From an uncultured Pseudomonadota bacterium (GTDB taxonomy: Bacteria > Myxococcota_A > UBA796 > GCA-2862545): DNA of 39,530 nucleotides. The stretch spans positions 1 to 39,530 of the forward strand of contig CALATR010000217.1 of assembly GCA_937891875.1 (NCBI GenBank), written 5' to 3'. The translations under genes were made by a program, and so were the position numbers. This document shows, piece after piece, positions 19,723-39,278 of this stretch. Below the pieces are notes generated by a model. It saw only the letters and a list, made by a program, of their open reading frames with translations, did no database searches and was not told the DNA's origin. The stretch's first letter is position 1. Each line of letters opens with the position of its first letter.

Positions 19723-20556
19723 CTACTCCGGCTTCGCGTTGGGCTCGATGGTGCCGTACAGCCCCATGCCCATGCGCTCCCAGCGCAGGTCCGTGGTCAG
19801 CGCACCGTTGCAGGAGTCGAAGCTGATCCAGATGAAGTGGGCCTTGCCCATGATCAGCTCCTCATCGACGAAGGTCCAGTCGCCGCTGCGGGAGTCGCCG
19901 GAGTTGTCCCGGTTGTCGCCCATCACGAAGACCTTGCCCTCGGGCACGGTGACCGGCCCCGACCAGGCCAGGCCCGAGGGACTGGCGTCGGTCAGCTTGG
20001 CGTGGGTCATGCGCCCGAGGTCTTCTTCCCACAGGGTGGCGCGCTTGGTGCGGCAGTCGTCCTCGTAGACGTACTCGCCCAGCATGCGGCGCTCCTGGAC
20101 CTCGCCGTTGAGCACGATCTGGTTGTTCTGCACCTCGATCGTGTCCCCCGGCACGGCCACCACGCGCTTGATGTAGTGGGTGGCCTTGTCCTTGGGGTAG
20201 CGGAAGACGATGATGTCGCCCCGCTGGGGATCGGCCCAGTCGAGCAGCTCCCAGCGCTGGTAGTTCAGCGGGTTCGGGAACCACAGGCCGTAGCTGTACT
20301 TGGTGACGATGACGTGGTCGCCGATGAGCAGCGTGGGAACCATCGACGTCGACGGAATCGAGAACGGCTGGAAGACGAACGTGCGGATGATGATGATCGC
20401 GAGGATCGCCGGTCCCCACGTCCGCAGCACCTCGAACAGCCAGCCCCCGAACGTACGGGGAGGCTCGTCACCCTCGCCGTCGCCGTCGGACTCGTGCTCT
20501 TCGACGGCCTCGGAGTCGAGCTCCTCGTCTTCCGTCTCGTCCTCTCGCACCACCAC
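19723..20556 (-). CDS. lepB: Signal peptidase I
   Basis: SIPSTSMVPTLLIGDHV (catalytic Ser box), GDIIVFRYP, YIKRVVAVPGDTIEV (Lys box), VFVMGDNRDNSGDSR. Confidence 0.9.
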   Translation of the reverse strand: MVVREDETEDEELDSEAVEEHESDGDGEGDEPPRTFGGWLFEVLRTWGPAILAIIIIRTFVFQPFSIPSTSMVPTLLIGDHVIVTKYSYGLWFPNPLNYQRWELLDWADPQRGDIIVFRYPKDKATHYIKRVVAVPGDTIEVQNNQIVLNGEVQERRMLGEYVYEDDCRTKRATLWEEDLGRMTHAKLTDASPSGLAWSGPVTVPEGKVFVMGDNRDNSGDSRSGDWTFVDEELIMGKAHFIWISFDSCNGALTTDLRWERMGMGLYGTIEPNAKPE

Positions 20557-20692
20557 CTCGCCCGGTGCTTGCCGGGGTGCTGCACACCGGCCAGGGTCGC
20601 GCGTCGTATCGGATCGCCCTCACGAGGGCCACCCGCCCAGACCGACGTGGACGATCGGGGTCGCGGTACCTACCCGTTTGCTGGAGGCGTCG

Positions 20693-21310
20693 ATGATCGA
20701 CCTGCAGGACATCCGGGCGGCCGTGGCCCGCGCACCGAGTCGCGTGGAGCTGCCCGAGGACGGACGCCGGGCGGCGGTCGCAGCGGTCGTGACGCCAGAC
20801 CTGGAGCTGCTGTTCATGTCCCGCGCGGTGTTCGAGGGGGATCCCTGGAGCGGCCAGGTGAGCTTCCCCGGTGGGCGGGTGGAGCCGGACGAGGGCGTGC
20901 TGGACGCCGCCATCCGCGAGACCCTGGAGGAGCTGGGCCTGCCGCTCGATCGCGACTGCCTGCTGGGGGAGCTGGACGAGCTGCAGACGCGGGGCAACCA
21001 GCCCACGCTCGTCATCCGGCCCTACGTCTTCGCGCCCGCCCGGATCCCGCCCCTGCGCCCGAACGAGGAGGTGGCGCGGGTGCATCGGCTGGGCCTGGAC
21101 GCGCTGCTGGCCGGCGCCGGGCGCGGAACGATGCGTCATCCCTGGCGCGAGCACGAGCTGGTGCTGCCGAAGGTGGACTTCGACGGGGTGCGCCTGTGGG
21201 GCCTGACCCTGCACATGGTCGACGACCTGCTCCACCGCCTGGACGGGCGGGGGCGGGGGCTCGCGCGGAGCGGGACGATGGATGCGCGGACACCCTGGGA
21301 AGGGGCGTAG
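20693..21310 (+). CDS. NUDIX hydrolase (CoA pyrophosphatase-like)
   Basis: Internal ATG of track ORF 20300..21310 with GGAGG upstream. NUDIX box GGRVEPDEGVLDAAIRETLEELGL. Confidence 0.85.
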   Translation: MIDLQDIRAAVARAPSRVELPEDGRRAAVAAVVTPDLELLFMSRAVFEGDPWSGQVSFPGGRVEPDEGVLDAAIRETLEELGLPLDRDCLLGELDELQTRGNQPTLVIRPYVFAPARIPPLRPNEEVARVHRLGLDALLAGAGRGTMRHPWREHELVLPKVDFDGVRLWGLTLHMVDDLLHRLDGRGRGLARSGTMDARTPWEGA

Positions 21311-21325
21311 GGAGCCGTCTCTCGG

Positions 21326-21718
21326 CTAGACGGACTCGTGGGGCGGCTCGGTCCGCTCTTCCCGCAGCATCTCCAGCAGGGCCTGCAGGCGGAACGGCTT
21401 CCACAGCACGGTGGCGCCGAGTCGCTCGGCCTCGCGCTCGACCGCGCCGGTGGCCCGACCGGTCACGAGGACCAGGCGCGCGCCGGTGGCCTGAGCCTCG
21501 GCCAGGACGTGCAGCCCCTGGCGATCCCCGAGGCTCTGGTCCGCCAGCACGAGGGTCAGGCGCTCCCCGTTGGCCTCGATCTCCTGCAGCTCTTCTCGGG
21601 CCTGGAAGCCCGACGACGCCGTCCGCACGTGATGGTCGGGCATGGCCATGCGGATGGCCTCCTCCATGATCTGGAGCAGGTCCGGGACGTCATCAACAAT
21701 CAGCACCACGGGGCGCAT
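21326..21718 (-). CDS. Stand-alone CheY-like response-regulator receiver domain
   Basis: MRPVVLIVDDVPD..., phospho-acceptor LVLADQSL, LVLVTG, WKPF. Start set at ATG 21718 (GGAGG upstream) instead of 21763. Confidence 0.85.
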   Translation of the reverse strand: MRPVVLIVDDVPDLLQIMEEAIRMAMPDHHVRTASSGFQAREELQEIEANGERLTLVLADQSLGDRQGLHVLAEAQATGARLVLVTGRATGAVEREAERLGATVLWKPFRLQALLEMLREERTEPPHESV

Positions 21719-21799: not shown

Positions 21800-22243
21800 T
21801 CAGGAGTTCTTACGAAACCGGACCTCGCGCACACGGCCCGCAACCATGTCGACCAGCAGCACCCCATCGACGTCGAAGGCGTGGGTGTACTCCAGCAGCT
21901 GCCGTCGGGTCGCGGGTGCGGTCGGCCGCGCTCCGAGCTCTCCCGACTTGACCTCGGCGACGTAGCGGCGGCGCTTGCGGCGCACGATGAGGTCCGCGCG
22001 GCAGGTCACGTCCACCGGGGCGTCATCGACGAAGAGCCGCCAGGAACCGGTCACCTGCCGCTCGAGGATGCGGTAGCCGTGGCGCTCCAGCAGCCGCTCG
22101 GCCTGCGCCTCCGCGTGCTGACCCTGCCGCACCCGACCGCGCGCCACCCACGACCGCCCGATCCGCGTGAGCGTCACGGTGACGAGCACGGCGAGCAGTG
22201 CTGCGGCGGTGGCGGCGAGCGTGAGGAGGAGGGCGTCGGACAT
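21800..22243 (-). CDS. Small TM-anchored protein with a PD-(D/E)xK (YraN/endonuclease-like) motif arrangement
   Basis: Internal ATG 22243 of track ORF 21800..22456. TM helix LLLTLAATAAALLAVLVTVTL. AERLLERHGYRILERQ ... CRADLIV ... YVAEVKSG gives a D...E-x-K pattern. Confidence 0.45.
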   Translation of the reverse strand: MSDALLLTLAATAAALLAVLVTVTLTRIGRSWVARGRVRQGQHAEAQAERLLERHGYRILERQVTGSWRLFVDDAPVDVTCRADLIVRRKRRRYVAEVKSGELGARPTAPATRRQLLEYTHAFDVDGVLLVDMVAGRVREVRFRKNS

Positions 22244-22289
22244 CGGAGAGGAGTAGCGCTGGTGGCGGTCAGGATGTGTCCGGCGGGGC

Positions 22290-22310
22290 GAGTTGCGAGT
22301 TTCGAGTTGC
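22290..22310. repeat. Complementary heptanucleotide array x3 (gagttgc gagtttc gagttgc)
   Basis: Read directly; it is the reverse complement of the GAAACTC-type unit in the right arm. Confidence 0.85.
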
Positions 22311-22645
22311 GAGCCCGGGGGATGGTCCCAGCCTCCGCGGCCGTGGAGCGCGGCGGGTCCAGGCGGTCTGACGGGAGTGGAGGGGCGGTCTCTGGTCGCT
22401 GGTCTCTGGGGCCCTCTGCGATCAGGGGCCCAAGACGTGGTGTCAGGGGTGTCCACAGCCCCCGTTCCGCGGCTCCGTGCACGGATGCTGGGTGCTTGCG
22501 CGGATCACACGACTCTCCGCCCGACACGCCCCCGCTTGGATCAGGCCCCAGAGACCAGAGACCAGGGACCGCCCCGCCACTCCCCTGCCCGCAGCAACGC
22601 CATTCCCCGCCGGACCAACTCGACCCGCCGAAGTCCACGGCCGCG

Positions 22646-22708
22646 GAGACTCGAAACTCGAAACTCGAAACTCGAAACTCGAAACGCGAAACTCGAAACT
22701 CGAGACTC
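22646..22708. repeat. Tandem heptanucleotide array (GAAACTC-type) x9
   Basis: gagactc gaaactc x4 gaaacgc gaaactc x2 gagactc. It starts 15 nt downstream of the stop of CDS 22723..23295 on the minus strand. Confidence 0.95.
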
Positions 22709-22722
22709 GACCTTCTCCGCCG

Positions 22723-23295
22723 CTACTTCTCTTCCTCCCCCTCTCCCGGCGCCCGCCGGCCTGCTCGCCCGCTGCCAGAGATCGCCTCCGCCCAGCGGCT
22801 CGCCTTCTCCGCGAGGTCCGGGTTGTCCATGACCACCTTGCCCACCACGCGGGCCGAGCGGACTGCGGACGAGGCGACACGGCCGGCGCGCTGGAGGGTG
22901 GCGCGGGCCTGACGGGCGCGCTCCTCGACCTGCTCGCGGCCCGTGCGCCAGCGGTCCTGCAGGGCGTCCGCGTCGATCCACGTGTGCATCGGGCCCAGCC
23001 GATCTTCGAGGTCGTCCCAGGACAAGTCGGCGATCTGTCCGCTGGCCTGCAGCCAGGCTTCCTGCACCGCCGTGCCCAGCGCCATGCCCGCGAAGCCGGC
23101 TGCGCTGCGCAGCTCCTCGCGGACCGCGCGCCGGGCCTGGTCCTTCTCCAGGATGAAGGCGTCCATCTGGGTGGTGTCGGCGCTGACGTGGCCGCCGGTC
23201 AGCGAGCGCAGCGGCACGTCCCCGGGGGGGATGGTGACGTCGTCGGGCACCTGCCAGAAGTGTTCCCGGTCGCCGTCGAACCAGACCCGGCTCAC
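22723..23295 (-). CDS. Hypothetical protein, mostly helical and charged
   Basis: 190-aa ORF. Its GTG start overlaps the aminotransferase stop (GTGA at 23292..23295), implying co-translation. No family recognised. Confidence 0.55.
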   Translation of the reverse strand: MSRVWFDGDREHFWQVPDDVTIPPGDVPLRSLTGGHVSADTTQMDAFILEKDQARRAVREELRSAAGFAGMALGTAVQEAWLQASGQIADLSWDDLEDRLGPMHTWIDADALQDRWRTGREQVEERARQARATLQRAGRVASSAVRSARVVGKVVMDNPDLAEKASRWAEAISGSGRAGRRAPGEGEEEK

Positions 23296-24807: not shown

Positions 24808-27800
24808 ATGCTGATCCCGTCCGTTGCCCAGCCGATCCCCGATGGCTGGGTGACCGTGGACGGGAGCGTCTACCGCGCCCTCATCGCCGAGGACGAGCCC
24901 GAGGTGGACCCTCGTCAGACCCTGGTCGTCTCCGATCGCGACGTGCGCCTGCGCTGGGACGGCAAGGCGCTTCAGATCCGCTCCGTGTGGCGGCTCGTGC
25001 CCAAGGAACGCACCTGGCTCGACCTGCCGATCGCTGGTCCCCAGGTGCGGGTCGATCGGGTCCTGCTGGGTGGCGTGCTGGCCAAGCTCCGCGTGGAAGG
25101 CGGCTATACGCGCATCACGGCCCAGATCGACCGGCCGGTGGAGCTGGTGCTCGAGGGGGCCGTCGAGGGCGATCCGACCCGCGGCCCCCTGTCGATCCCG
25201 CTCGCCGGAGCGGTGCGGGGACAGGTCGAGATCGCCGTGCCCCAGGGCCTCGAAGGCCGCTTGATCGGCTCCACGGCGGGCGTGCCCGTGCGCGGCACCT
25301 GGCTCACCACCTCCGACCAGCTGTCCCTGCAGGTCGGACCTCCCCAGCGCAAGGCCCGGGACCGGAGCACCCTGGCGGTCGCGAGCGTCGGCATGGGCCT
25401 GACCGTGGGCGACGGCGCCGTGGACGGACGGGCCCAGGTGCGCTGGGCCCTGCGCCAGGGCCGGATGGAGCAGGTCGTGCTCCGCGTCGACGGCGTCGGA
25501 AACGACCTCGAGGTGACCGGCGGCAACGTCGGCCGCGTGGAGCGGCAGGGCAGCCGCGTGGTCGTCACCCTGCGCGAGCCGTCGGAGACCGTGGTCGATC
25601 TGGAGGTGCGCTGGAGCGTGCCCGTGCCCACCGGCGAGAGCGGCCAGGTCGCGGTGCCGCGCATCACCCCTGAAGGCGCCTTCCGCACCGAGGCCTCGCT
25701 CCAGCTCGCCCGCGACGGCACCCTGGAAGTGCTGCCCGAGGTCCCCGGCTGGCAGGCGATCTCCGCGTCGGAGCTCCCCGACTGGGGTGACGATCTGGTC
25801 GCTGGAACGCCGACTGCGGCCTACCGCTCCGCCACCGCGGGCAAGGGCGGCACCCTGGGACTGCTCCGCTTCGTCCCGGCGAGCGGACCGGCGGTCGTGG
25901 TCGACGTCGCCAGCCTCACCATCGCCACCAGCTACGAGGGCCGGACCCTGACCCGGGCCCTCTACACCGTGCGCAACGAGCGCGGTGCCCACCTCGCCGT
26001 GACCCCGCCCGCGGGCTCCACCATCGTCGGTGTGCGCGTCAACGACGGCCCAGTCACCCCGGTCGCCGACGGAGGGCGCTGGCTGGTGCCGCTCCCGCGG
26101 TCGCTCGAGACCGTCGACGGGCTGGTCTCCTTCCCGGTCGAGGTGGTGCTCCTGGGCGACGGCACCCCCTGGATCCGCAAGGAAGGGCGGGAGATCCCGA
26201 TGCCGGTGGTGGACGCGCCGATCGCGGTGAACCGGGTCACCCTGCACCTGCCGCCCACCTACGAGAACGACCTGGACGAGGGCGCCGCCGGCCAGGTCGA
26301 CGAGTTCACCGAGGGCGAGGGCATCGCGTATGGCTTCGGCCTGGGCGACGAGGACGAGGCCCAGGCGGACCAGCTCTGGCAGGACGCCCAGGCGGCGTGG
26401 ATGCGCAACGACTTCGACGAGGCGGACGAGCTGCTCGACGAGCTCGAGGTCATGGGCGCGAGCAACGAGAACCTCGGAAAGCTCCGCTCGAACCTGGATG
26501 TCGTACAGGGGCGTGACGCGACCAAGGCGAAGACCATCCAGGCCCGCCGGGTCCGCGAGCAGGCGAAGAGCCGGGGGCTCGAGGACTACCGCAAGCAGGA
26601 GGAGCTGCTGCGCCAGGCCGAGGAGGAGCTGTCGTCGGGTCAGTACGGCAGCGCCCAGGCCACCTATGAAGAGGTGGCGGAGCTGGCGCAGAAGCTCGAC
26701 AAGCTCGAGCAGGAGGAGTCCTTCGAGCAGAAGGCCACGGTCGACCTCGCCATGCGCAACTCCTCCGCGGCGTCCCAGGGGCAGGTCCGCATGGCCGAGC
26801 TGTCCGGCAAGGACGAGAAGAAGAAGGCGGTCGAGAAGAAGGAGCGCGACCGGGTGCTGGACCGGCTGGCCGAGCAGGCGGATCGGTCCGGCTGGGTCAC
26901 GACGGCGGCGGACTCGGGCAACGTGGCCGACGGCAACGGGATCGTGACCGAGGCGGCCAACGGTCGGCTCGATGGTGACCCGTCCTTCATCCCAGTCGAG
27001 GGTCAGAAGGGCGAGATCACCGAGATCGCCGACGAGATCGAGGCGGAGATCGAGGCCGAGCGCAGGCTCACCAAGGAGTTCCTGGAGCGAGTCCCGTCGG
27101 GTCGGTCCTACCAGGGGGCCCTGGGCGGCGTGGCCGGGGGCGTGGTCGGCGGGGAGGTCGGCGGTGCGGACGGGCTCGCCGGACTCGGCACCACGGGAGT
27201 CGGTCGGGGCGGCGGCGGGAGTGCGGAGACCGTCACCATCTCCAAGGACGAGATCCAGCACATGCCGGAGCCCAGCCCGGACGTCGTCGAGGAGGCGTCG
27301 GTCGACTTCGCCACGAGTCGGCGGACGATCAAGACCCTGCAGCGCCGCAGCGGGCCCCGCGGGGTCGACCTCGGCGGAATCGGCACCGGACGCCGCAAGA
27401 AGCCCAAGGCCCCCAAGGGGTCCGGCGCTCGGGACATGGACCAGGGCAGCTACGACGTCGACATCGCCGACGAGGAAGAGCCCGTGATCCAGTTCGGACG
27501 GGACATGCCGCTCGACGATGACGGCGAGCTCTCCGAGATCGTCGTCGACGCGCCCCCCGCGGCTCCCACGACCGGCTCCTTCTCCTCGGCCGACATGGAC
27601 TTCGAGGACGCCCCCATCGAGGGCAACCTCGCCACCCCCGACGCGTACAAGCTGGAGGCACTGGAAGTGACCTCCACCCGCATGTCGGTCGTCATTCCCG
27701 TCCAGGGAGAGACCCTTCGCTACGAGCACCTCCTCCTGCCCGCTGGCGCCGAGCACGCGGTGCGGATCGAGGCCCGCTCCACCCATCGAGACATCCCAAG

Positions 27801-27813
27801 GAGGCTTCCGTGA
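24808..27813 (+). CDS. Large protein of unknown family (P1): beta-rich N-terminal ~470 aa, then an acidic/coiled-coil and Gly-rich region and a conserved C-terminal module
   Basis: 1001-aa ORF, collinear with the downstream P2 in its N-terminal half and at the extreme C-terminus. The start is uncertain (see findings). Confidence 0.7.
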   Translation: MLIPSVAQPIPDGWVTVDGSVYRALIAEDEPEVDPRQTLVVSDRDVRLRWDGKALQIRSVWRLVPKERTWLDLPIAGPQVRVDRVLLGGVLAKLRVEGGYTRITAQIDRPVELVLEGAVEGDPTRGPLSIPLAGAVRGQVEIAVPQGLEGRLIGSTAGVPVRGTWLTTSDQLSLQVGPPQRKARDRSTLAVASVGMGLTVGDGAVDGRAQVRWALRQGRMEQVVLRVDGVGNDLEVTGGNVGRVERQGSRVVVTLREPSETVVDLEVRWSVPVPTGESGQVAVPRITPEGAFRTEASLQLARDGTLEVLPEVPGWQAISASELPDWGDDLVAGTPTAAYRSATAGKGGTLGLLRFVPASGPAVVVDVASLTIATSYEGRTLTRALYTVRNERGAHLAVTPPAGSTIVGVRVNDGPVTPVADGGRWLVPLPRSLETVDGLVSFPVEVVLLGDGTPWIRKEGREIPMPVVDAPIAVNRVTLHLPPTYENDLDEGAAGQVDEFTEGEGIAYGFGLGDEDEAQADQLWQDAQAAWMRNDFDEADELLDELEVMGASNENLGKLRSNLDVVQGRDATKAKTIQARRVREQAKSRGLEDYRKQEELLRQAEEELSSGQYGSAQATYEEVAELAQKLDKLEQEESFEQKATVDLAMRNSSAASQGQVRMAELSGKDEKKKAVEKKERDRVLDRLAEQADRSGWVTTAADSGNVADGNGIVTEAANGRLDGDPSFIPVEGQKGEITEIADEIEAEIEAERRLTKEFLERVPSGRSYQGALGGVAGGVVGGEVGGADGLAGLGTTGVGRGGGGSAETVTISKDEIQHMPEPSPDVVEEASVDFATSRRTIKTLQRRSGPRGVDLGGIGTGRRKKPKAPKGSGARDMDQGSYDVDIADEEEPVIQFGRDMPLDDDGELSEIVVDAPPAAPTTGSFSSADMDFEDAPIEGNLATPDAYKLEALEVTSTRMSVVIPVQGETLRYEHLLLPAGAEHAVRIEARSTHRDIPRRLP

Positions 27814-29675
27814 AGCTGCATGTGCCCATGATCCTCACGGTGGCACTCGCCGCCGGCGCGCTCGCTCCGATGGCCCACGCGGCCGAGGCCGAGCAGGTGA
27901 CCCTGTCCCTGCGCGAGTTCCTGCAGCTCTACGAGAAGAGCCGCGACCGCAAGAAGGACCCCGAGCAGGCGCCCCGCGACTTCTCCCTGTCGTCGGCGAA
28001 CTACGTCGGTGAGGTCATCGTCGACGAGGGCGAGCCCACGTCCGCGGTGTTCACCGCCCGCATGCAGGTCCAGGTCCACAAGTCCGAGGGCTGGATCAAG
28101 GTCCCGCTGCTCTCCCGCACGGTCGCCCTGCAGAACGCGACCGTGAACGGGCGTCCGGCGCCGGTGGTGCTCGAGGGCGGCACCTACACCCTGGTCACCG
28201 ACCAGAAGGGCAGCCTGGACGTCCGCCTGGAGTTCGCGACCAACGTCAACAACTCGCTGGGTACCTCCAGCTTCGCCTTCGACCTGGTGCCGTCCGGCGC
28301 GACCGAGGTGGAGCTGACCGTTCCGGTCGACGACGACCTCGACTTCGCCATCGCCAACGCTCGCCGGGTCTCGGAGAAGAAGGAGCGCGGCCGCCGCATC
28401 GTCACCGCCACCCTGCCGCCCCAGGGCTCGCTGAACGTGCGCTGGCAGCGCGAGGTGCCCACCGTCGCCGACGACGGCACCGAGGTGAAGAAGGACGAGG
28501 CGAAGATCTACAGCGAGGTCTACACGCTCGCGTCGGTCGGCGACGGCCTGCTCCGCGCCCAGGCGACCGTGGACAACACGATCCTGTTCGCCGGCGTCGA
28601 CAGCTTCGAGCTGAAGATCCCCGACGGCATGACCCTGCTCGACGTGAAGGGCGCCGGTCTGCGCGACTGGGCGCTGGGCGAGGACAACACGCTCAAGGTC
28701 GAGCTCAACTACGCCGCCGAGAACCGCTACAGCCTGACGCTGGACATGGAGAAGGTCATCGGCGAGGGCAGCACCAGCGTGGACGCCCCGCTGGTCACCC
28801 CGCTGGGCGTCGAGCGGAGCAAGGGCTGGGTCGGCGTCGAGGCGCGTGGCAACCTGGAGATCGGCGCCGGCGACGTGGTCGGCGCGACCGCGGTCGACGT
28901 GCGCACCCTGCCCGGCCAGATCCTCGGGCGGACCAGCCAGCCGGTGCTGCTCGGCTACAAGTACCTCGTGACCAACGCCAAGGTCCCGCTGGTCATCAGC
29001 GCCCACGATGACGTGGACGTCCTGGTCACCCTGCTCGACCAGGCCGAGGCCACGACGATGTTCACCCCGGACGGTCGGCGCCTCACGAGCGTCAAGTACG
29101 AGGTGCGGAACAACCGTCGGCAGTTCCTCCGGTTGAAGCTCCCGGATGGTGCAGAGCTGTGGTCGGCGGCGGTCGCCGGTCGCGCGGTGCAGCCGGCCAC
29201 GTCGAGCGGGGCCATCCTGGTGCCGCTGATCCGGTCGCAGAGCCAGGGCGGCGGTCTGGCGAGCTTCGCGGTCGAGGTCGTCTACGTCGAGTCTGGCGAG
29301 CCCACCGCCGACAATGGCAAGGGCCGCTTCCAGGCGGTGCTGCCCAAGCCCGACGTGCCCACCACCTACGTCGGCTGGACGGTCTACGCGCCGGACGAGG
29401 CCAAGGTGAAGGCGGACAAGGCCGAGGGCACCCTGCGCTACGTGCCGCGGCTCTCCCGCCCGCTCGGCGCGGTGGCGGCCCTCGAGGTGCAGGCCCAGGC
29501 GCCCCAGCAGCAGCGCTCGGCGAACATCCAGGCCGACGCCGGCGCGCTCGGCGATGGGGCGGCCCCGGTCCGGGTCCGGCTCCCGCTGGAGGGCACGCCG
29601 TACTTCTTCGAGAAGCTGCTCGCGCTGGACGAGGACCTCGAGGTGGCCTTCGACTACAAGGGCCTCAAGGACTGA
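27810..29675 (+). CDS. Secreted protein of unknown family (P2), paralogous in architecture to P1
   Basis: AAGGAGG 5 nt before the GTG, which overlaps the P1 stop (GTGA). Signal peptide MKLHVPMILTVALAAGALAPMAHA. Shared block YEVRNNRRQFLRLKLPDGAEL...ILVPLIRS...SFAVEVVYVE. Confidence 0.75.
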   Translation: MKLHVPMILTVALAAGALAPMAHAAEAEQVTLSLREFLQLYEKSRDRKKDPEQAPRDFSLSSANYVGEVIVDEGEPTSAVFTARMQVQVHKSEGWIKVPLLSRTVALQNATVNGRPAPVVLEGGTYTLVTDQKGSLDVRLEFATNVNNSLGTSSFAFDLVPSGATEVELTVPVDDDLDFAIANARRVSEKKERGRRIVTATLPPQGSLNVRWQREVPTVADDGTEVKKDEAKIYSEVYTLASVGDGLLRAQATVDNTILFAGVDSFELKIPDGMTLLDVKGAGLRDWALGEDNTLKVELNYAAENRYSLTLDMEKVIGEGSTSVDAPLVTPLGVERSKGWVGVEARGNLEIGAGDVVGATAVDVRTLPGQILGRTSQPVLLGYKYLVTNAKVPLVISAHDDVDVLVTLLDQAEATTMFTPDGRRLTSVKYEVRNNRRQFLRLKLPDGAELWSAAVAGRAVQPATSSGAILVPLIRSQSQGGGLASFAVEVVYVESGEPTADNGKGRFQAVLPKPDVPTTYVGWTVYAPDEAKVKADKAEGTLRYVPRLSRPLGAVAALEVQAQAPQQQRSANIQADAGALGDGAAPVRVRLPLEGTPYFFEKLLALDEDLEVAFDYKGLKD

Positions 29676-30858
29676 TCGGCTCCGGGTAGAGGAGCGCGGT
29701 CACTTCGGCGAGTGCGTCGTCGGCAGCGCGGTGGTCGCTGCCGGCTTGAGCGCAGGGGCCGAGGCCGGGTTCGATCGGGTAGGGCAGGGGATCGCCGTAG
29801 CGATTGGCGCGGTAGAGCGCGCCGCCACGGCCGGAGAAGTGCACGTCGTCGGCGGGGTCCAGGTAGGGGTCCAGCAGGCGGCGGGCATCGTCGAGTTCAT
29901 CGGTTTGGAGGCTGAACACGATGTCCTGCGCCTGAGGCCAGAGCCGCGACTCCCAGCGGACGCCAAGCTGCTGGTCTCCTGGCCAGGGCTTGCCTTGCTG
30001 CTCCCGCGCGTGGCGGAGCCCGATCGCCACGGTAGCGAGCGCCTCGAGCGGCTTGTTCGAGGCGCGCATCCTGCCGGTCAGCGCCGCGTAGCTGAGGACG
30101 GCGGGCTCGCCGCGTGGCCCGTGTTGGCGGGGGTCGCACGCGCGGGCGTCCGGGGACCTGAACGGCGAGGATGGCCGGGCGTCGTCGAGGGAGGACAGGA
30201 TCCGCTGGCGCGCCACTTCCGCGCGGTACTGGTTGTAGCCGGCCTGGGCGGCGTCCAGCAGGCCGACGGGCGTGTCGACGTGGGGGGCATAGCCGGAGTC
30301 GCGGTGTCGTCGGTAGAGCTCGCCGCGCGCGCCGGTCGGGTACAGCTCGACCCCGGGGTGGCGGAGGTCCCCCAGCGCCCCACGCACGTCGTCGACCTCG
30401 TCCAGGCCCATGTCTTCCAGGGTGTCGGCGGCGAGCTCGAGGTAGGCCTGCTCGTAGATGGAGCCGAGCACGCGGAGCTTGCCGGCAGGGTCCCGCTCCA
30501 GGGCGCGAGCGGCGTGCGCTCCGTCGAACGCGGCGAGCACGGCACCGGCGCGGGCCCCGTGGTCGACGAGCTGCTCGACGACCCGCTGGTGTGCCACCAT
30601 CGCCCGGGGTGCGGCGGGATCGCCACCGAGGGTCGTGCAGCGGAGCGCCCCCCGAACGCCGTCGATGACGGCCTGGTTGTAGCCTTCGCCGAGGAGCGCG
30701 CGGTCGTGTTCGGCGACCTTGCCCAGCTCCGGTGCGAAGGCACAGTCCCGGGCCTCCAGGCCGTGCGGGGGCACCAGGCGGACGCGATCGTGGATCTCGG
30801 GGTCAGGGCCGCCGCAGGCGGAGAGCGCGGCGACGAGGGCGATGGAGGACACGCGCAT
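29665..30858 (-). CDS. Lipoprotein of unknown function (paralog of 30861..31568)
   Basis: Lipobox VAALSACGG. Shares ALRC(T/S)(T/S)LG and LYRRHRDSG(Y/F) with the upstream gene. Its 3' end overlaps the P2 3' end by 11 nt (convergent). Confidence 0.65.
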   Translation of the reverse strand: MRVSSIALVAALSACGGPDPEIHDRVRLVPPHGLEARDCAFAPELGKVAEHDRALLGEGYNQAVIDGVRGALRCTTLGGDPAAPRAMVAHQRVVEQLVDHGARAGAVLAAFDGAHAARALERDPAGKLRVLGSIYEQAYLELAADTLEDMGLDEVDDVRGALGDLRHPGVELYPTGARGELYRRHRDSGYAPHVDTPVGLLDAAQAGYNQYRAEVARQRILSSLDDARPSSPFRSPDARACDPRQHGPRGEPAVLSYAALTGRMRASNKPLEALATVAIGLRHAREQQGKPWPGDQQLGVRWESRLWPQAQDIVFSLQTDELDDARRLLDPYLDPADDVHFSGRGGALYRANRYGDPLPYPIEPGLGPCAQAGSDHRAADDALAEVTALLYPEPISP

Positions 30859-30860
30859 GA

Positions 30861-31568
30861 TCAGTTCCCGTTGGCAGCGGTGGGTTCATCGCGGGCGAGC
30901 TCCGCCAGGATCTGCAGCCGCGCCTGATCGGCGCGGAACTGGTGCTCGCCGGCGAAGGCGTAGATCTTCAGCGCCTCGGGGATCCGGGGGCTGGGGAGGA
31001 AGCCGGAGTCGCGGTGGCGCCGATACAGGCCGGTCTCATCGCCGCTGAAGTCGAGGTCGTAGCCGCGCGTTCGAAGGGACTGGGCGACGGTCCGAATGGC
31101 CTCACGGCGGGGCTCCGGCACCTTCGGGAGGAGCCTTGCCGCCCGCTCCAGGTTCAAGCGCTCCCATGCCACCGCGATGACGCGGACCACTTCCGGGTCG
31201 GCCGCCGCGTGAGGACGGGCGACGAGCGCACCGTCGATGGCCGTGAGCACGGCGTCCTCGTACCTGCCGTCGTTCTCGTAGCGCGCGGCCAGGTCGAACA
31301 TCTGCCCGGCGACGTCCCACCCGGTCCCGTCGCCGAGCGAGGAGCAACGCAGCGCCTCGTTCACGACCGCGCGGGCCGCGTCGCACTGCGCCTCCGTCGC
31401 GCTGTCGGGATCGAAGCCGTCGAGGGCGTCCAGCTCCGCACTCATGCGGCAGGAGCGCCCGGCCAGATGCTCGGGCACACGCAGGCTCGCGTCGTCGGGA
31501 TCGGGGCTGCAGCCGGCCAGGGCGAGCAGGAACACGGGAACAAGGCGTACAAGTCGGACCACGAGCAC
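30861..31568 (-). CDS. Lipoprotein of unknown function (paralog of 29665..30858)
   Basis: Lipobox LLALAGCSP. Motifs EALRCSSLGDG and GLYRRHRDSGF. Only 2 nt separate its stop from the next start. Confidence 0.65.
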   Translation of the reverse strand: MLVVRLVRLVPVFLLALAGCSPDPDDASLRVPEHLAGRSCRMSAELDALDGFDPDSATEAQCDAARAVVNEALRCSSLGDGTGWDVAGQMFDLAARYENDGRYEDAVLTAIDGALVARPHAAADPEVVRVIAVAWERLNLERAARLLPKVPEPRREAIRTVAQSLRTRGYDLDFSGDETGLYRRHRDSGFLPSPRIPEALKIYAFAGEHQFRADQARLQILAELARDEPTAANGN

Positions 31569-34533: not shown

Positions 34534-36120
34534 CTACCTGCAGGTCCCGGCGTCCACGTACTCGACCTCGACCTTGGCGCCGTCCGGGAAGTCCGGCTGG
34601 AGCGACAGCGTCCGCCCCAGCTCGCCGCCGAGGATCCACGACTCGGTCGCGATGCCGCTCACCGACACCCGCACCGACTCCGGCACCGGCTTGGCCAGCA
34701 GCTGGTGACTCCAGGTCTCCCGCCGCATGTCGGCCGTGTTCAGGGCCAGGCTGGCCCAGTGGCCGTCCCAGCTGGAGGCGCACAGGTCCAGGGTCTGGCC
34801 CTCGGTGCTGGTCGCCGCCTCGTCCAGGCGTGACGTGGTCGGTCCGCAGCCCGACCGCGGCGTGATGGTCGAGATGTGCACCTCGACGCCCTCGCTGCGC
34901 ATCTGGCTGACCCAGGTGCCCGGCGTCCGCCCGGACACGTCGTCCCGGGCGGAGATGACCACGACGTGCACCGGGTCCGAGCCCGAGAGCCAGCCTCCAA
35001 AGCACGAGTTGCGCCCGCGGCTCACGGAGTCGGCGGTCAGGGCCAGGGGCTTGCGCGCCCACTCGGTCCCCGGGTCGAACAGCGTGTCGACGAGCTGGTC
35101 GGCCTCGGCCATGTCGGCCGGCGGCGCGGCAAACGTGTAGGGGCAGACCGACTCGGTGGACGCGGCCGCCACCCGGTAGTCGACGCCCTCGGTGGCGAGG
35201 CTCTCGAGCAGGTTGCCGACCCCGGCGCGGATCTTCGCCCGGTGGCCGGCCACGTCGGACGCTTCGTCGTCGTGTACCAGCAGCATGTGTGCGCCGCTGC
35301 CGTCCGAGGTCTGCCAGGTCTCCACCGCGTGGTCGTTCACCCGGCCCTCGCCCAGGAGCAGCACGCTGACCGGCTCCGGCAAGCCGGTGCTGATCGACAG
35401 GGTGCAGCTGTGCCGCCCCGCCCAACGCGGCTGGAAGTCTACGGGCAACCGGGCGAAGTCGCTCGCGGCGATCGGTGCGGACTTCAGGGCCTGCACCGCG
35501 TCGTCCTGGAGGCGGAACCCCTCGCACCCGGGCTCCGCGCCCAGGGTGACATCGTAGACGGGCATCTCGTCGGGGCCGGCGTTCTCGATGAGCACGCTGG
35601 CTTCGTTCGTGCAGTACGCCCTGGTCGCCTCGACGATCTCGGTCGACAGCGTGGGGGTCGGGCCCGATGCGTCGGCGACCACCCGCACCGTCAGGTCGCG
35701 CTCGGCGGAGTCGGTCAGGGGGATGCTGGCCTCGAAGTGTCCGCCGTGGGGGGGATCGAAGGTCACGGGCAGGGTCCGGGTCTCGCCGGCGGGTACGACC
35801 ATGAAGAGCAGGTCGGGAGGCAGGCGGAACGCGTCTCGCCGGTCGCCGGACTGCGCGTTCTCCAGGCGCAGGTCCCGAACGATCATGTCCTCATCGGTGT
35901 TGTTGATGAGCTGGATGACCTTGTCGACCGGGGTCTCGCTGGCCGCGATGTCGAACACCAGGGTCGTGGGCGTGACCTGCACCCCGCCCTCGACCGAGTC
36001 CGTGTCCAGCGGTCCGACCACGAACGGGTTGTCCGTGTCGGCGATGAACGGGCGCAGCTCGTCGCAGCCGGCGGCGAGCCACGGCAGCAGCAACAGGGTG
36101 ACGGCAAGGGGTCGATTCAC
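34534..36120 (-). CDS. Large lipoprotein with Ig/PapD-like beta-sandwich domains and a degenerate vWA-like domain
   Basis: Lipobox WLAAGC. VQVTPTTLVFDIAASETPVDKVIQLINNTDEDMIVRDLRL (ASH/PapD-like). HMLLVHDDEASDVAGHRAKIRAGVGNLLESLATEGVDYRVAAASTE resembles the vWA-like lipoprotein domain common in myxobacteria. GTG start. Confidence 0.7.
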   Translation of the reverse strand: MNRPLAVTLLLLPWLAAGCDELRPFIADTDNPFVVGPLDTDSVEGGVQVTPTTLVFDIAASETPVDKVIQLINNTDEDMIVRDLRLENAQSGDRRDAFRLPPDLLFMVVPAGETRTLPVTFDPPHGGHFEASIPLTDSAERDLTVRVVADASGPTPTLSTEIVEATRAYCTNEASVLIENAGPDEMPVYDVTLGAEPGCEGFRLQDDAVQALKSAPIAASDFARLPVDFQPRWAGRHSCTLSISTGLPEPVSVLLLGEGRVNDHAVETWQTSDGSGAHMLLVHDDEASDVAGHRAKIRAGVGNLLESLATEGVDYRVAAASTESVCPYTFAAPPADMAEADQLVDTLFDPGTEWARKPLALTADSVSRGRNSCFGGWLSGSDPVHVVVISARDDVSGRTPGTWVSQMRSEGVEVHISTITPRSGCGPTTSRLDEAATSTEGQTLDLCASSWDGHWASLALNTADMRRETWSHQLLAKPVPESVRVSVSGIATESWILGGELGRTLSLQPDFPDGAKVEVEYVDAGTCR

Positions 36121-36205
36121 GCCAGCAATCTATCGGCTGGCACGACGATCCGCGCGTATGCGATCCACCCGCCTGGGTCCGGTACTCTCGCGAGTCCGCC
36201 GCGAC

Positions 36206-37888
36206 CTAGAACGCGACGCCGACCGACAGGCCCTGCGCCACGCCCAGCTGGGTCGGCGTGCCGGGGCCCATGAGGGGCACCGCCCGCACGTCGTAGCGGA
36301 GCTGGGCGGAGACGTCGCCCTTGCCGACCGGGAGCATCCACTCGGCGCGCAGGCCGGGCATCACCGTGTACCAGAGCTCCTTGCGCTCCTGGCACTGGAA
36401 GGCGTCGTCGACGCAGGTGCCCTGGCGGAACATCACGCCCGCCTCGAGCTCCGGGCCGATCAGCAGGTCATCGCGCAGCTGGTAGGCGACCGAGACACCG
36501 GCGCTGGGCATGACGCCAACGAGGTCGTACTGGTCGATGTCGCTCCAGCGAGCCGCGAGGTCCCGCGTGGTGGCGCCGTAGCTGGAACGCAGGTGGAAAC
36601 CGGGCTTCCACTCGCCTGCCCACTTGGGGCGCACGCCGAGCTCCAGCTCGCCGGCCCCGATGGGCAGCGACTCGGCGTTGAGCGTCGCGACCGCGCCGAC
36701 GTGCAGCGAGACCGTGGTCTCGAGTGGCTGCAGATCCTCGATCTGCAGGTGGTCGCCGGCCTTGAGGCGGACGTTCTCCGCATAGACCGTGCGCCCGTCG
36801 GTGGTCAGGATCTCGAGCCGGTGCTTGCCGGGCTCGATGGCCACGACGCTGGGCAGGCTGCCCCGCGCCTGACCGTCAACCAGCAGCCGGGCGGTGACGA
36901 GGATGTCGTCGTACCCGGAGATGAGCGCGCGCTCGGCACGCGTCCGCTGGCCAGGGTCCCCCGCCAGGTAGATCGCTTCCCGCCCGCTGACCCGGTACTC
37001 CGCCCGGGGCACCTGCAGGCCGCCAGTGTGGCGGACGGTGCGGTCCTGGGCGTAGTCGTGGGCCTCGGTCACATCGACCAGGCCGTTGCCGTCGAGGTCG
37101 GCGGTGCGGCGGTCGGAGCCGAGGGCCTCGAGCAGGTAGTGGGTGTACACGCCGTTCTGGAGGCTCTTGTCCTCCATCGCGGGCTGGTAGTACTGGGCGG
37201 CGTAGAGCCGGGCCTCGGACTCGGTCACTTCGGAGACCGGGTTGGGGGCGGGCGGCTCGCCGCGCAGGCTGGACAGGCGATCCCGGGTGGTGCTGTTCAC
37301 CACCGCGCGGCTGCCGTCGGCCCGGCCGTTGTGGCAGGTGTCCATGATCAGCACCCGGCGGCGGGGCACCAGCTCGGTGAGGGTCTCCTCGAGCCAGGCG
37401 ACCTCGAGACCGCGGTCCTCCGGCGTCGCCAGCTTGGCGTCGCTGGGCAGGAACCACAGGCGGGTGCCGTCGATCGGGTCGAGCGTCAGGGTGCCGTGGC
37501 CGGACAGGTAGAGCAGGAAGGTGTCGTCCCGCTGCAGGCCCGCGGTGATCTCCTTCAGCTTCTTCACGATGGCGTCGCGGCTGGTTGCGTCCTTGCCGGT
37601 CAGCACGTGCACTTCGTCGTAGTCGCCGGTGACCGGATCGCGCAGGGCGGCGGCCACGTCGCGGGCGTCCTTGCCAGCGAAGCGCAGGGTCTCGAGCTCG
37701 GGATCGGCGTAGGTGTCCACGCCGATGAGCAGGGCGACGCGCTTGGCGCCGTACACCTGATCGGCGCTGCCGGTGTCCTTGACGGTCACCGTGCCGGCGA
37801 GGGCGGGCACCGCGCACAGGGCGAGGCCCGCGACCAGTCCGGCAGCGAGGGTCTTGTGGGTTGCAAGCAGGGTCAACAGCGGCTTCAT
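36206..37888 (-). CDS. Caspase-fold (peptidase C14, orthocaspase-like) protein with a PEGA-like domain and a C-terminal beta-barrel-like region
   Basis: Track ORF 36206..38416 trimmed to ATG 37888, which overlaps the upstream stop (ATGA). Signal peptide MKPLLTLLATHKTLAAGLVAGLALCAVPALA. RVALLIGVDTY, catalytic His LYLSGHG and Cys LIMDTCHNG. DLDGNGLVDVTE. PEGA-like LLVDGQARGSLPSVVAIEPGKHRLEI. The protein ends ...GLSVGVAF. Confidence 0.85.
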   Translation of the reverse strand: MKPLLTLLATHKTLAAGLVAGLALCAVPALAGTVTVKDTGSADQVYGAKRVALLIGVDTYADPELETLRFAGKDARDVAAALRDPVTGDYDEVHVLTGKDATSRDAIVKKLKEITAGLQRDDTFLLYLSGHGTLTLDPIDGTRLWFLPSDAKLATPEDRGLEVAWLEETLTELVPRRRVLIMDTCHNGRADGSRAVVNSTTRDRLSSLRGEPPAPNPVSEVTESEARLYAAQYYQPAMEDKSLQNGVYTHYLLEALGSDRRTADLDGNGLVDVTEAHDYAQDRTVRHTGGLQVPRAEYRVSGREAIYLAGDPGQRTRAERALISGYDDILVTARLLVDGQARGSLPSVVAIEPGKHRLEILTTDGRTVYAENVRLKAGDHLQIEDLQPLETTVSLHVGAVATLNAESLPIGAGELELGVRPKWAGEWKPGFHLRSSYGATTRDLAARWSDIDQYDLVGVMPSAGVSVAYQLRDDLLIGPELEAGVMFRQGTCVDDAFQCQERKELWYTVMPGLRAEWMLPVGKGDVSAQLRYDVRAVPLMGPGTPTQLGVAQGLSVGVAF

Positions 37889-38643
37889 CGCACGGCCTCC
37901 ACCTGCTCTGCAGCGCAACGTCCGCCCAGCTCCCAGGCCGCCGCGCACACTGCCTCGGCCGTGGGCTCGACGGCGAGACCGTCGGCCACGTCGGTGGCGG
38001 TCAGCGGGGCATCGGTGCGGATGACGGCGAACACGGCGGACTCCTCTCCAGCTTCCAAGGCATACCCGACCAGATCGGCACCTGTCTTGAGATCCGCGGT
38101 GCCGGCCGTCACTTCCTGTGTGTGCAGGAGCTGGGCGCGGTCGCCGTCCACCCGGACGAGGGAGACGTGACCGTCGGCGTAGGCGTCGATCCGGAAGAGC
38201 AGGGTGTCCCCCGGCTCGTAGGTGCGACCGCGCTGGAAGCGGTCGGTGCCGGCGGTGGTCTGCACCGCCATGGACAGGTCTACCCCGGGGCCGACTCCGA
38301 CGTCCCCGCGGGGGGTGAAGTCCTCGGGGTTGCCGATGCCGTCGTCCGCGGGCACGACCATGAATGCGACCAGCACGGCGGCGGCGATGGCGACCAGCGG
38401 GCCAGCGACGATCCACCAGCGACCGGGCTTGTTGGCGGGCGCGGGCACGGGCTCCGGGGCAGCCTCGACACTCGGAAGTGCCGGGACATCCTCGATGGAC
38501 GGCGGATCCTGGGGCGTGCTCGCGATGAGCGCCAGGATGGAGGCGTCCAGGTCGGGCGGGTCCAGGGGTGGCAGCTCACCGAGCAGGCGGTCGAGCTCGT
38601 CCTCGGAGATCATCGGGCCGGTGCCGACAGTGTCGTCGCTCAT
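37885..38643 (-). CDS. Single-pass membrane protein in the anti-sigma position, with a DUF4384-like periplasmic domain
   Basis: Internal ATG 38643 of track ORF 37885..39258, overlapping the sigma stop (ATGA). TM helix WWIVAGPLVAIAAAVLVAFMVV. Periplasmic YEPGDTLLFRIDAYADGHVSLVRVDGDRAQLL. No HxxxCxxC zinc motif. Confidence 0.55.
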   Translation of the reverse strand: MSDDTVGTGPMISEDELDRLLGELPPLDPPDLDASILALIASTPQDPPSIEDVPALPSVEAAPEPVPAPANKPGRWWIVAGPLVAIAAAVLVAFMVVPADDGIGNPEDFTPRGDVGVGPGVDLSMAVQTTAGTDRFQRGRTYEPGDTLLFRIDAYADGHVSLVRVDGDRAQLLHTQEVTAGTADLKTGADLVGYALEAGEESAVFAVIRTDAPLTATDVADGLAVEPTAEAVCAAAWELGGRCAAEQVEAVR

Positions 38644-39224
38644 GACGCCACCCCCCGCTCGGCCAGGATCTCGCGGAGGCGGGCGCGGGCCCGGGACACC
38701 CGGCGGCGCGCATTGGCCGGGGTGATGTCCAGCGCTTCGGCGAGCTCGTTGTGGTCCAGGCCCTCGACCGCACCCAGCAGGAAGGCCTCCCGCAGGGTCT
38801 CGGGGAGCTCCTGGATGGCGCGCTCGAGGTCGACGCCGGAGAGCGGGTCGCCGCTGGCGCGGGTCGCGGTGCCCTCGGGCCGCCAGAAGGTCTCGCCGCC
38901 CAGCTGCTCGTCCAGCTCGATGGTGTCGATGCGGCGGCGCTCCTTGCGGAAGCGGTCCCGGGCGACATTGGCGGCGATGCGGAAGAGCCACGGCTTGACC
39001 GGCTGGCCTTCCTTGTAGGTGTGGGCGCTGCGCCACACGCGGAGGAACGCTTCCTGGTACAGCTCGGCAGACAGCTCCCGGTCGCCCGTCCGTCGCGCCA
39101 GCCACGACCACACCGGGCCGCGGTAGCGAGCGAACAGGGCGCCGAATGCGTCCTGGTTGCCGGCTTGCACCATGATCATCAGGTCCTCGTCGGACGGCGA
39201 GTCGATTGTGCGCCCTCCAGCCAC
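38640..39224 (-). CDS. ECF-type (group 4) sigma-70 family RNA polymerase sigma factor
   Basis: DEDLMIMVQAGNQDAFGALFARYRGPVWSWL (region 2.1), PWLFRIAANVARDRFRKERR (2.4), LPETLREAFLLGAVEGLDHNELAEALDITPANARRRVSRARARLREIL (region 4). GTG start with AGGGAG upstream. Confidence 0.9.
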   Translation of the reverse strand: MAGGRTIDSPSDEDLMIMVQAGNQDAFGALFARYRGPVWSWLARRTGDRELSAELYQEAFLRVWRSAHTYKEGQPVKPWLFRIAANVARDRFRKERRRIDTIELDEQLGGETFWRPEGTATRASGDPLSGVDLERAIQELPETLREAFLLGAVEGLDHNELAEALDITPANARRRVSRARARLREILAERGVAS

Positions 39225-39278
39225 CCCATACGCTCCCTGGGTCCGCCGTGTGACACACGGACCCGTGTCAATGACCTG

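Follow-up and report, generated by a model that had tools for sequence, protein, structure and literature searches.

A conserved operon of uncultured Myxococcota encodes an ECF sigma/anti-sigma pair with a caspase homologue on a predicted outer-membrane barrel, a candidate site-1 protease

Why should a caspase-fold protease be translated in step with a sigma factor of the extracytoplasmic function (ECF) class and its anti-sigma factor? The question is raised by a four-gene cassette on the minus strand of contig CALATR010000217.1, of which the 39,530-nt stretch studied (positions 1 to 39,530) is called the window here; all coordinates are positions in it. Head to tail, the cassette encodes an ECF sigma factor, a single-pass membrane protein in the anti-sigma position, a caspase homologue of peptidase family C14 and a lipoprotein. 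To our knowledge, neither the site-1 protease nor the signal has been identified for most ECF anti-sigma factors, and almost no natural substrates are known for bacterial caspase homologues. An earlier note on this DNA had offered two hypotheses, in which the protease is either the regulated output of the sigma factor or the enzyme that cleaves the periplasmic part of the anti-sigma factor. The second fits the evidence better, with cleavage itself being the step that we infer. Our answer is accordingly a tentative one: the caspase may be the site-1 protease of the anti-sigma factor and cut it at Arg112-Gly113, after which a site-2 protease would free the sigma factor and the operon would be re-induced. 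More guardedly still, an outer-membrane-anchored orthocaspase could be a dedicated site-1 protease for an ECF anti-sigma factor, acting on a conserved Arg/Lys-Gly bond.

An open reading frame (ORF) check of the window confirmed the four genes, and the identities given to them in the earlier note are borne out by Pfam and NCBIfam matches and by the lipobox. The two 4-nt ATGA stop/start overlaps and the 85-nt gap that it described are present as well (Table 1). The note had also proposed that related genomes be searched for the same three-gene order. Scanning one genome per GTDB species gave 36 loci; in 33 of them, the encoded caspase is 43-65% identical to that of the window, and all of them come from uncultured Myxococcota-type genomes. 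Thirty loci are informative in having DNA upstream of the caspase gene, and none of these departs from the order sigma, anti-sigma, caspase. A metagenome scan added 53 loci; in all 27 informative ones (those with sufficient DNA upstream and a caspase identity of 44% or more), the sigma gene is present and the order is again kept. Among related genome loci, a 4-nt overlap is available at 29 of 31 anti-sigma/caspase junctions and at no fewer than 25 of 30 sigma/anti-sigma junctions; for the latter junction, the same is true of 27 of 41 metagenome loci. The lipoprotein gene lies downstream of the caspase gene in 24 of the 33 genome loci. Because a comparison of the flanks found no window gene beyond these four that is common to all related loci, we take the four cassette genes to be the conserved unit. 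On this comparative evidence, we conclude that the sigma/anti-sigma/caspase arrangement is not due to chance.

More distant relatives retain the core of this arrangement. Nine loci (L069, L071, L072, L074, L077-L079, L083 and L085) form a subfamily in which the caspase, with its C-terminal barrel, is 38-42% identical to that of the window and the sigma and anti-sigma genes are still found upstream. This subfamily lacks both the TGTCACA promoter described below and the Ig-like lipoprotein, and in L071, the sole locus scanned for downstream genes, the caspase gene is followed by genes for beta-helix and FG-GAP repeat proteins. At 35% caspase identity, locus L034 has a sigma gene, a 4-nt overlap, a membrane protein gene and then a caspase gene of the same architecture.

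The second gene lies directly downstream of the sigma gene, and its product has a single transmembrane helix. Since basic residues precede this helix and acidic residues follow it, the protein is predicted to have its N-terminus inside and its C-terminus outside, as expected of an anti-sigma factor. No Pfam family matched the protein, and the NCBIfam antisigma model NF052375 matched it weakly (E 2e-4, 21.4 bits against a cut-off of 100). It presumably holds the sigma factor via its short cytoplasmic N-terminus. Some orthologues have a longer N-terminus ('LRAWLLDGEPLP...'), and the orthologues at L023 and L032 contain 'HDC.H...CPDC' in theirs, where a His and a CxxC motif recall zinc (ZAS) anti-sigma domains. 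This pattern argues for descent of the family from class I, or ZAS-type, anti-sigma factors, the copy in the window having been trimmed at its N-terminus.

Outside the membrane, the AlphaFold2 (AF2) model of the anti-sigma factor has a disordered linker that leads into a compact sensor domain with conserved residues Cys233 and Cys243. Within the linker, R112 and G113 are invariant in 21 aligned anti-sigma sequences. The aligned position reads RG or KG in all 29 genome loci (26 RG by script and three KG by eye from the same output). Of 41 metagenome loci, 39 have an [R/K]-G after the membrane helix; all nine from the distant subfamily are among them, although the anti-sigma factors of that subfamily can otherwise scarcely be aligned. 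The dipeptide lies 12-16 residues past the membrane helix in genome loci and 8-23 residues past it in metagenome loci. A conserved basic-Gly pair in a disordered juxtamembrane linker resembles an expected site-1 cleavage site, and we treat it as a candidate for one.

What kind of protease, then, does the third gene encode? Its product matches Peptidase_C14 (PF00656; 46.8 bits against a cut-off of 21.4, 3.8e-12, residues 49-295), and the best fold matches in a Foldseek search were the Arg-specific MALT1 (caspase-Ig3, 1e-8) and metacaspases. Two other assignments were rejected, as the CHAT protease family (PF12770) scored 16.9 bits against a cut-off of 24 and the NCBIfam model 'caspase, EACC1-associated type' scored 95.7 bits against 140. 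The His of the SGHG motif and the Cys of the DTCHNG motif are both invariant among homologues, and the protein should be an active His-Cys protease. In the family profile, KDA, which contains Asp74, aligned to 'NDA' of yeast Yca1, and DTCHNG aligned to 'DSCHSG' of GSU0716. Acidic residues in the S1 pocket of metacaspases and paracaspases select Arg or Lys at P1. Because D74 and D183 align with these pocket positions, we predict that the cassette caspase also prefers Arg or Lys at P1. For orthocaspases and metacaspases, an acidic S1 pocket likewise predicts cleavage after Arg or Lys (PMC6426788). Another basic-Gly pair, [R/K]209-G210, lies in the linker between the p20 and p10 regions of the caspase and is plausibly a self-processing site.

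Behind the catalytic domain, the model adds a helix, a small beta domain and an eight-stranded barrel. For the barrel, the Foldseek matches are OmpX, Ail and OmpA (E-values of 5e-7 to 1e-5, template modelling scores up to 0.71); no Pfam family matched this region, and its likeness to these proteins is at the level of the fold only. The predicted outward loops of the barrel are longer than its periplasmic turns, the N-terminus is taken as periplasmic and the protein ends in Phe. Given these features of the model, the caspase domain should hang in the periplasm from the outer membrane.

Table 1. Features of the cassette, listed in the direction of transcription (aa, amino acids; pLDDT, predicted local distance difference test)
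Feature	Position in window	Strand	Residues	Basis or remark
ECF-type promoter TGTCACA-N16-CGTA	39229..39255 (-35 39249..39255, -10 39229..39232)	-		Alignment of DNA upstream of sigma genes
ECF (group 4) sigma factor	38640..39224 as annotated (GTG start)	-		Sigma70_r2 and Sigma70_r4_2
ATGA stop/start overlap, sigma/anti-sigma	38640..38643	-		4 nt; context ...cgATGAag... or ...tcATGAgc...
Single-pass anti-sigma factor, 252 aa	37885..38643	-		AF2 model, pLDDT 81.8
Two short cytoplasmic helices, anti-sigma		-	14-22, 30-41	AF2 model
Transmembrane helix (WIVAGPLVAIAAAVLVAFM), anti-sigma	38359..38415	-	77-95	AF2 model and sequence
Disordered juxtamembrane linker, anti-sigma		-	96-120	AF2 pLDDT ~57-59
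Candidate site-1 cleavage site in linker, Arg112-Gly113	38305..38310	-	112-113	Invariance in alignment
Periplasmic sensor domain, beta-sandwich and two helices	37888..38283	-	121-248	AF2 pLDDT ~96
ATGA stop/start overlap, anti-sigma/caspase	37885..37888	-		4 nt; the two junction contexts are ...cgATGAag... and ...tcATGAgc...
Predicted outer-membrane-anchored caspase, 560 aa	36206..37888	-		Pfam and AF2 model, pLDDT 79.7
Signal peptide, caspase		-	1-32	AF2 model
C14 catalytic domain	36989..37756	-	about 45-300	PF00656 match
Asp74 and Asp183, predicted S1-pocket positions		-	74, 183	Invariant in 40 homologues
Predicted catalytic His131 (SGHG)	37496..37498	-	131	Invariant in 40 homologues
Predicted catalytic Cys185 (DTCHNG)	37334..37336	-	185	Invariant in 40 homologues
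[R/K]209-G210 (Arg209-Gly210 in window), p20/p10 linker	37259..37264	-	209-210	Conserved; low-confidence linker
Helix, caspase		-	312-332	AF2 model
Small beta domain, caspase		-	334-375	AF2 model
Predicted eight-stranded outer-membrane beta-barrel, ending ...VGVAF	36209..36715	-	392-559	AF2 pLDDT near 90 and Foldseek
Caspase-lipoprotein intergenic gap	36121..36205	-		85 nt
Lipoprotein, 528 aa, lipobox LAAG-Cys19	34534..36120 (Cys19 at 36064..36066)	-		Signal peptide and lipobox

Aligning the DNA upstream of all sigma genes revealed a putative promoter motif, TGTCACA(CC)-N16-CGTA, with a longer form of the -35 element giving TGTCACACC-N14-CGTA. Its layout is classic for ECF promoters, in which a group-specific -35 element is paired with a -10 element of the CGT type. 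TGTCACA-N16-CGTA matches the window once, against 0.01 matches expected by chance. In all 30 genome loci that contain the sigma gene, the motif occurs exactly once and directly upstream of that gene, as it also does directly upstream of sigma in 24 of 27 metagenome loci, and 29 of 31 loci have a spacer of 16 nt. Since the genome loci each have a single conserved ECF promoter immediately in front of the sigma gene, the operon is probably autoregulated by its own sigma factor. Motif scans found no sigma-70-type promoter, terminator or second ECF motif inside the cluster, and the 85-nt gap contains no promoter, no terminator and no significant RNA structure (z-score 0.38). On this basis, the cassette is most likely transcribed as one autoregulated unit. 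In the window alone, the -35 element lies inside a perfect 7-bp inverted repeat, CCGTGTG-T-CACACGG (39241..39255). Related loci do not extend this repeat, and it is therefore probably incidental.

In the sigma factor itself, Pfam detects Sigma70_r2 (4.6e-17, residues 30-98) and Sigma70_r4_2 (2.4e-14, residues 132-183), and the TIGR02937 model is matched at 84.9 bits, above its cut-off of 42.9. With only the sigma-2 and sigma-4 regions in 179-194 aa, the protein has the small size of ECF sigma factors, which is about 170-200 aa. Its closest solved relatives are RpoE, SigH, SigE and CnrH; among NCBIfam equivalog models, it falls below every cut-off, the best being PRK12513 with 117 of the 206 bits required. 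Just 4 nt separate the -10 element from the annotated GTG start at 39224. Further downstream, at 39179, is a conserved ATG that has GAGGA in front of it (39188..39184) and would give a 179-aa protein. Because the GTG is so close to the -10 element and GAGGA precedes the ATG, 39179 is more likely to be the true start. At locus L022, this conserved ATG is the sole start codon able to lie downstream of the promoter.

The promoter of the ECF41 group (PMC3426412) likewise has TGTCACA at -35, a spacer of 16 nt and a -10 element of the CGT type. We rejected membership in that group, as the promoter motif is all that the two have in common. ECF41 sigma factors have a C-terminal SnoaL-like regulatory extension of ~100 aa, have no anti-sigma factor and control COE genes, whereas the cassette sigma ends right after region 4 without an extension, and an anti-sigma gene is present and a COE gene is not.

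We favor the site-1 reading because of the invariant [R/K]-G motif in the linker, the metacaspase-type acidic S1 pocket and the translational coupling of the anti-sigma and caspase genes. According to this proposal, transcription would start from the cognate promoter TGTCACA-N16-CGTA, and the sigma factor, anti-sigma factor and caspase would be made by coupled translation, with the lipoprotein gene on the same transcript. The anti-sigma factor would cross the inner membrane once and expose its beta-sandwich sensor domain to the periplasm, while the exported caspase would insert its C-terminal barrel in the outer membrane and leave its protease domain in the periplasm. A signal would then lead the caspase to cut the anti-sigma factor at Arg112-Gly113, which lies 12-16 residues from the membrane within the disordered linker. 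Once the bulky periplasmic domain was lost, an RseP-type site-2 protease encoded elsewhere, together with cytoplasmic proteases, would release the sigma factor, which would re-induce the operon and perhaps other genes. The lipoprotein is likeliest to be a sensor or modulator that gates the protease.

Several observations weigh against this proposal. An outer-membrane tether would have to deliver the protease to a site predicted to lie within ~5 nm of the inner membrane, a reach across the periplasm that is unproven. The [R/K]-G pair could be a structural or binding motif instead of a scissile bond, and a protease encoded inside the operon that it activates creates a positive feedback that needs a brake. 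In the window, the cytoplasmic part of the anti-sigma factor is truncated to two short helices and has no Cys/His motif. Its sensor domain matches DUF4384 (PF14326) only below threshold, at 11.9 bits for the copy in the window where 27 are required, and a profile search through 1.84 billion representatives found no caspase fusions among relatives of the sensor domain. Finally, the distant caspase-barrel homologue at L082 has no sigma gene nearby, with an AhpC-like gene and a 379-aa ORF without known identity upstream, and the caspase-barrel family is therefore not confined to a sigma-linked role.

The case of L082 also speaks for the other hypothesis of the earlier note, under which generic envelope proteases or some other signal control the sigma pair, and the caspase and lipoprotein are merely induced products for envelope remodelling, quality control or cell death. 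We consider this possible but doubtful as a full account. Both genes lie downstream of the sole ECF promoter of each locus and would hence be sigma-induced, and the subfamilies differ in the fourth gene, which encodes an Ig-like lipoprotein in one of them and proteins of the beta-helix or FG-GAP kind in the other; such variation suits cargo or substrates. Such a scheme leaves unexplained why the anti-sigma and caspase genes are coupled through 4 nt in 29 of 31 loci and why the linker has an invariant basic-Gly pair that matches the predicted specificity of the protease. The two models are compatible, however. Coupled translation would also suit a stoichiometric complex in which the caspase is bound by the anti-sigma factor's periplasmic domain without cutting it, and this domain either keeps the protease inactive or is shielded by it as RseB shields RseA. 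That arrangement seems unlikely to us, and so does its corollary that the signal acts by breaking the contact between the two proteins across the periplasm. In its favor, the sensor domain forms a compact and well-defined beta-sandwich in which two Cys are conserved, and DUF4384-like domains accompany caspases in other proteins, DUF4384 being a recurrent accessory domain of orthocaspases (PMC7475262). Against docking alone, neither the catalytic dyad nor the S1 pocket varies, so proteolysis appears to matter, and the conserved motif lies in the disordered linker and not on the folded domain. The similarity to DUF4384 stays below threshold in the four of eight anti-sigma family members in which it is seen (best E 0.029), and we rejected a 'Rosetta stone' link through this domain, as none of the caspase fusions that it predicts turned up among the 1.84 billion representatives. 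The sensor-domain profile matched just 223 clusters among them, nearly all with proteins of 160-320 aa that have the domain at the C-terminus, and the long matches are repetitive Ig-like proteins. A fold search of the sensor domain against the PDB gave nothing below E 1e-3.

The earlier note had recognized no described ECF group with a caspase-fold protease as its third, tightly coupled member. The exact cassette indeed has no counterpart in the literature that we found; more broadly, the cassette is less novel than that note supposed, as there are two precedents for a caspase-fold protease with an ECF pair. In Myxococcus xanthus, the anti-sigma factor DdvA has a fused periplasmic TPR-CHAT caspase-fold domain (PMC6061681, PMC11506125), which has been proposed, and not shown, to be a site-1 protease that cuts the flexible juxtamembrane linker in trans before RseP acts (PMC11506125). 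We regard DdvS/DdvA as the closest known system. It resembles the cassette in its occurrence in Myxococcota, in combining an ECF sigma factor with a single-pass anti-sigma factor, of zinc-type descent in DdvA and probably so in the cassette, and in having a caspase-fold protease in the periplasm, as predicted for the cassette. Whereas the DdvA protease is a TPR-CHAT fusion with an active site described as incomplete, that of the cassette is a separate C14 gene product, neither CHAT nor accompanied by TPR, which is predicted to be anchored by an outer-membrane barrel and has a complete dyad, and the cassette anti-sigma factor has the beta-sandwich only. The DdvS regulon is a CBASS/CRISPR island; the sole recognized target of the cassette sigma is its own operon. 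The other precedent is type III-E Csx29, a TPR-CHAT protein that cleaves Csx30, which binds the ECF-type sigma factor RpoE (bioRxiv 10.1101/2022.08.17.504292). In this Craspase system (Cas7-11/Csx29 with Csx30-Csx31-RpoE), a caspase-fold protease cuts an anti-sigma-like protein once in a flexible linker, just as we propose for the cassette. Some Csx30 C-terminal domains are DUF4384, which is 'often fused to protease domains' (bioRxiv 10.1101/2022.08.17.504292), and the cassette sensor domain resembles DUF4384 only weakly and below threshold. Craspase is cytoplasmic, RNA-guided, of the TPR-CHAT type and cas-linked, whereas none of these traits was seen for the cassette among its four proteins and the few neighbors scanned. 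As to type III-E membership, a generic caspase model was the only PADLOC match among the four proteins, the whole window not having been searched for cas genes or repeats.

Both precedents are defense-linked (PMC11506125; bioRxiv 10.1101/2022.08.17.504292), and the generic PADLOC 'caspase' model matches the cassette protease at 4e-14, which raises the idea that the caspase is a cell-death effector switched on by the ECF pair after phage attack. We find this very improbable. The other three cassette proteins match no PADLOC model, the window neighbors scanned are either housekeeping genes (an ABC exporter and a peroxiredoxin) or have no Pfam match, and the protease is predicted to be periplasmic and not cytoplasmic. 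In most relatives, moreover, the operon has a stable chromosomal position behind a housekeeping gene, lnt, unlike a mobile defense island.

E. coli RpoE-RseA is activated by a periplasmic site-1 cut of the anti-sigma factor followed by intramembrane proteolysis (PMC11506125). With RseB, it is similar to the cassette as an autoregulated ECF operon for a sigma factor, an anti-sigma factor and a periplasmic accessory protein. Its site-1 protease DegS is an inner-membrane serine protease of family S1 with a PDZ domain, encoded elsewhere and triggered by porin C-termini, whereas the cassette candidate is a cysteine protease encoded in the operon and predicted to sit in the outer membrane. The three-compartment layout of outer-membrane protein, inner-membrane anti-sigma factor and ECF sigma factor is shared with FecI-FecR-FecA. 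Anti-sigma factors of the FecR type undergo a periplasmic cut at a conserved dipeptide. For Fec, however, this is a self-catalysed cut at Gly-Thr and the transducer is a 22-strand TonB-dependent protein; the cassette instead has a basic-Gly dipeptide and a predicted eight-strand anchor that bears the protease. The orthocaspases and metacaspases Yca1, MaOC1 and GSU0716 share with the cassette protein the C14 fold, the His in SGHG, the Cys in D-x-C-H-x-G and the acidic S1 pocket. In the literature, we found no described orthocaspase or metacaspase with both a signal peptide and an outer-membrane barrel at its C-terminus, or with its gene in an ECF operon, and no description of a separate C14 protease on such a barrel as the third coupled gene of an ECF system; the main text of the ECF classification paper, its supplements aside, does not mention caspases. 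From DdvS/DdvA and the type III-E systems, the cassette differs in its separate C14 protease with a complete dyad, the predicted barrel anchor of this protease, a small sensor family of its own, a dedicated lipoprotein and no link to defense genes among the proteins and neighbors scanned. The caspase barrel, the autoregulatory promoter, the candidate cleavage motif and the linkage to lnt in most relatives had not been part of the earlier note.

The lipoprotein and the surroundings of the operon bear on the signal. Most loci encode a short lipobox, and C19 is invariant across 14 lipoprotein orthologues, which share seven invariant Cys. Residues 30-240 comprise two HYDIN/ASH-type Ig-like domains (profile match to HYDIN/CFAP65, 2.7e-40), and there are weak Pfam/NCBIfam matches to choice-of-anchor D and Cep192; a family profile search with the Cys-rich C-terminal half gave no match. 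In 45 of the 55 promoter-bearing loci, the gene immediately upstream of the cassette is lnt, encoding apolipoprotein N-acyltransferase (Pfam LNT_N and CN_hydrolase). These loci include L002 and L004-L020 (for example, L012 3270..4850 and L004 1511..4693), and there is no lnt in the window. In ~40 of the 55, the -10 element CGTA overlaps the stop codon (TAG or TAA) of a long ORF, which is lnt where checked. The ECF promoter would therefore lie inside the last ~27 nt of lnt, where the -35 element encodes Val-Thr-Pro. No lnt match was found upstream in the window's own subclade (the window, L001, L025, L033 and L075); the -10 element reads CGTAT in the window, L025, L033 and L075 and CGTAG in L001. 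Because the operon is directly behind lnt in most relatives, we venture the weak guess that its signal concerns lipoprotein or outer-membrane biogenesis.

Elsewhere in the window, two adjacent minus-strand ORFs (29665..30858 and 30861..31568) have lipobox-like signals (..LSAC.. and ..LAGC..), a common 'LYRRHRDSG[YF]' motif and no Pfam match; they may encode tandem lipoprotein paralogues from a family not yet described. Four long plus-strand ORFs also have no Pfam match (24808..27813, 27810..29675, 19837..21669 and 21881..22912). The first two overlap by 4 nt, and this pair is common only to the closest relatives, L025 and L033.

All carriers that we found are uncultured Myxococcota genomes, and work on the cassette therefore depends on heterologous reconstitution. 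For this purpose, it offers a testable pairing of a protease whose active site is intact with a candidate substrate and its predicted scissile bond (R112-G113), together with a reporter promoter (TGTCACA-N16-CGTA) and a candidate sensor lipoprotein. A caspase domain on a predicted eight-strand outer-membrane barrel is an unusual architecture by itself, and the frequent position of the operon behind lnt is a hint that the biogenesis of lipoproteins or of the outer membrane is under surveillance. If the proposed cleavage is true, a bacterial C14 caspase homologue would for the first time have a defined physiological substrate, the anti-sigma factor, and the cassette would represent a new protease relay that reports the state of the outer membrane, or lipoprotein sorting, across the periplasm to transcription.

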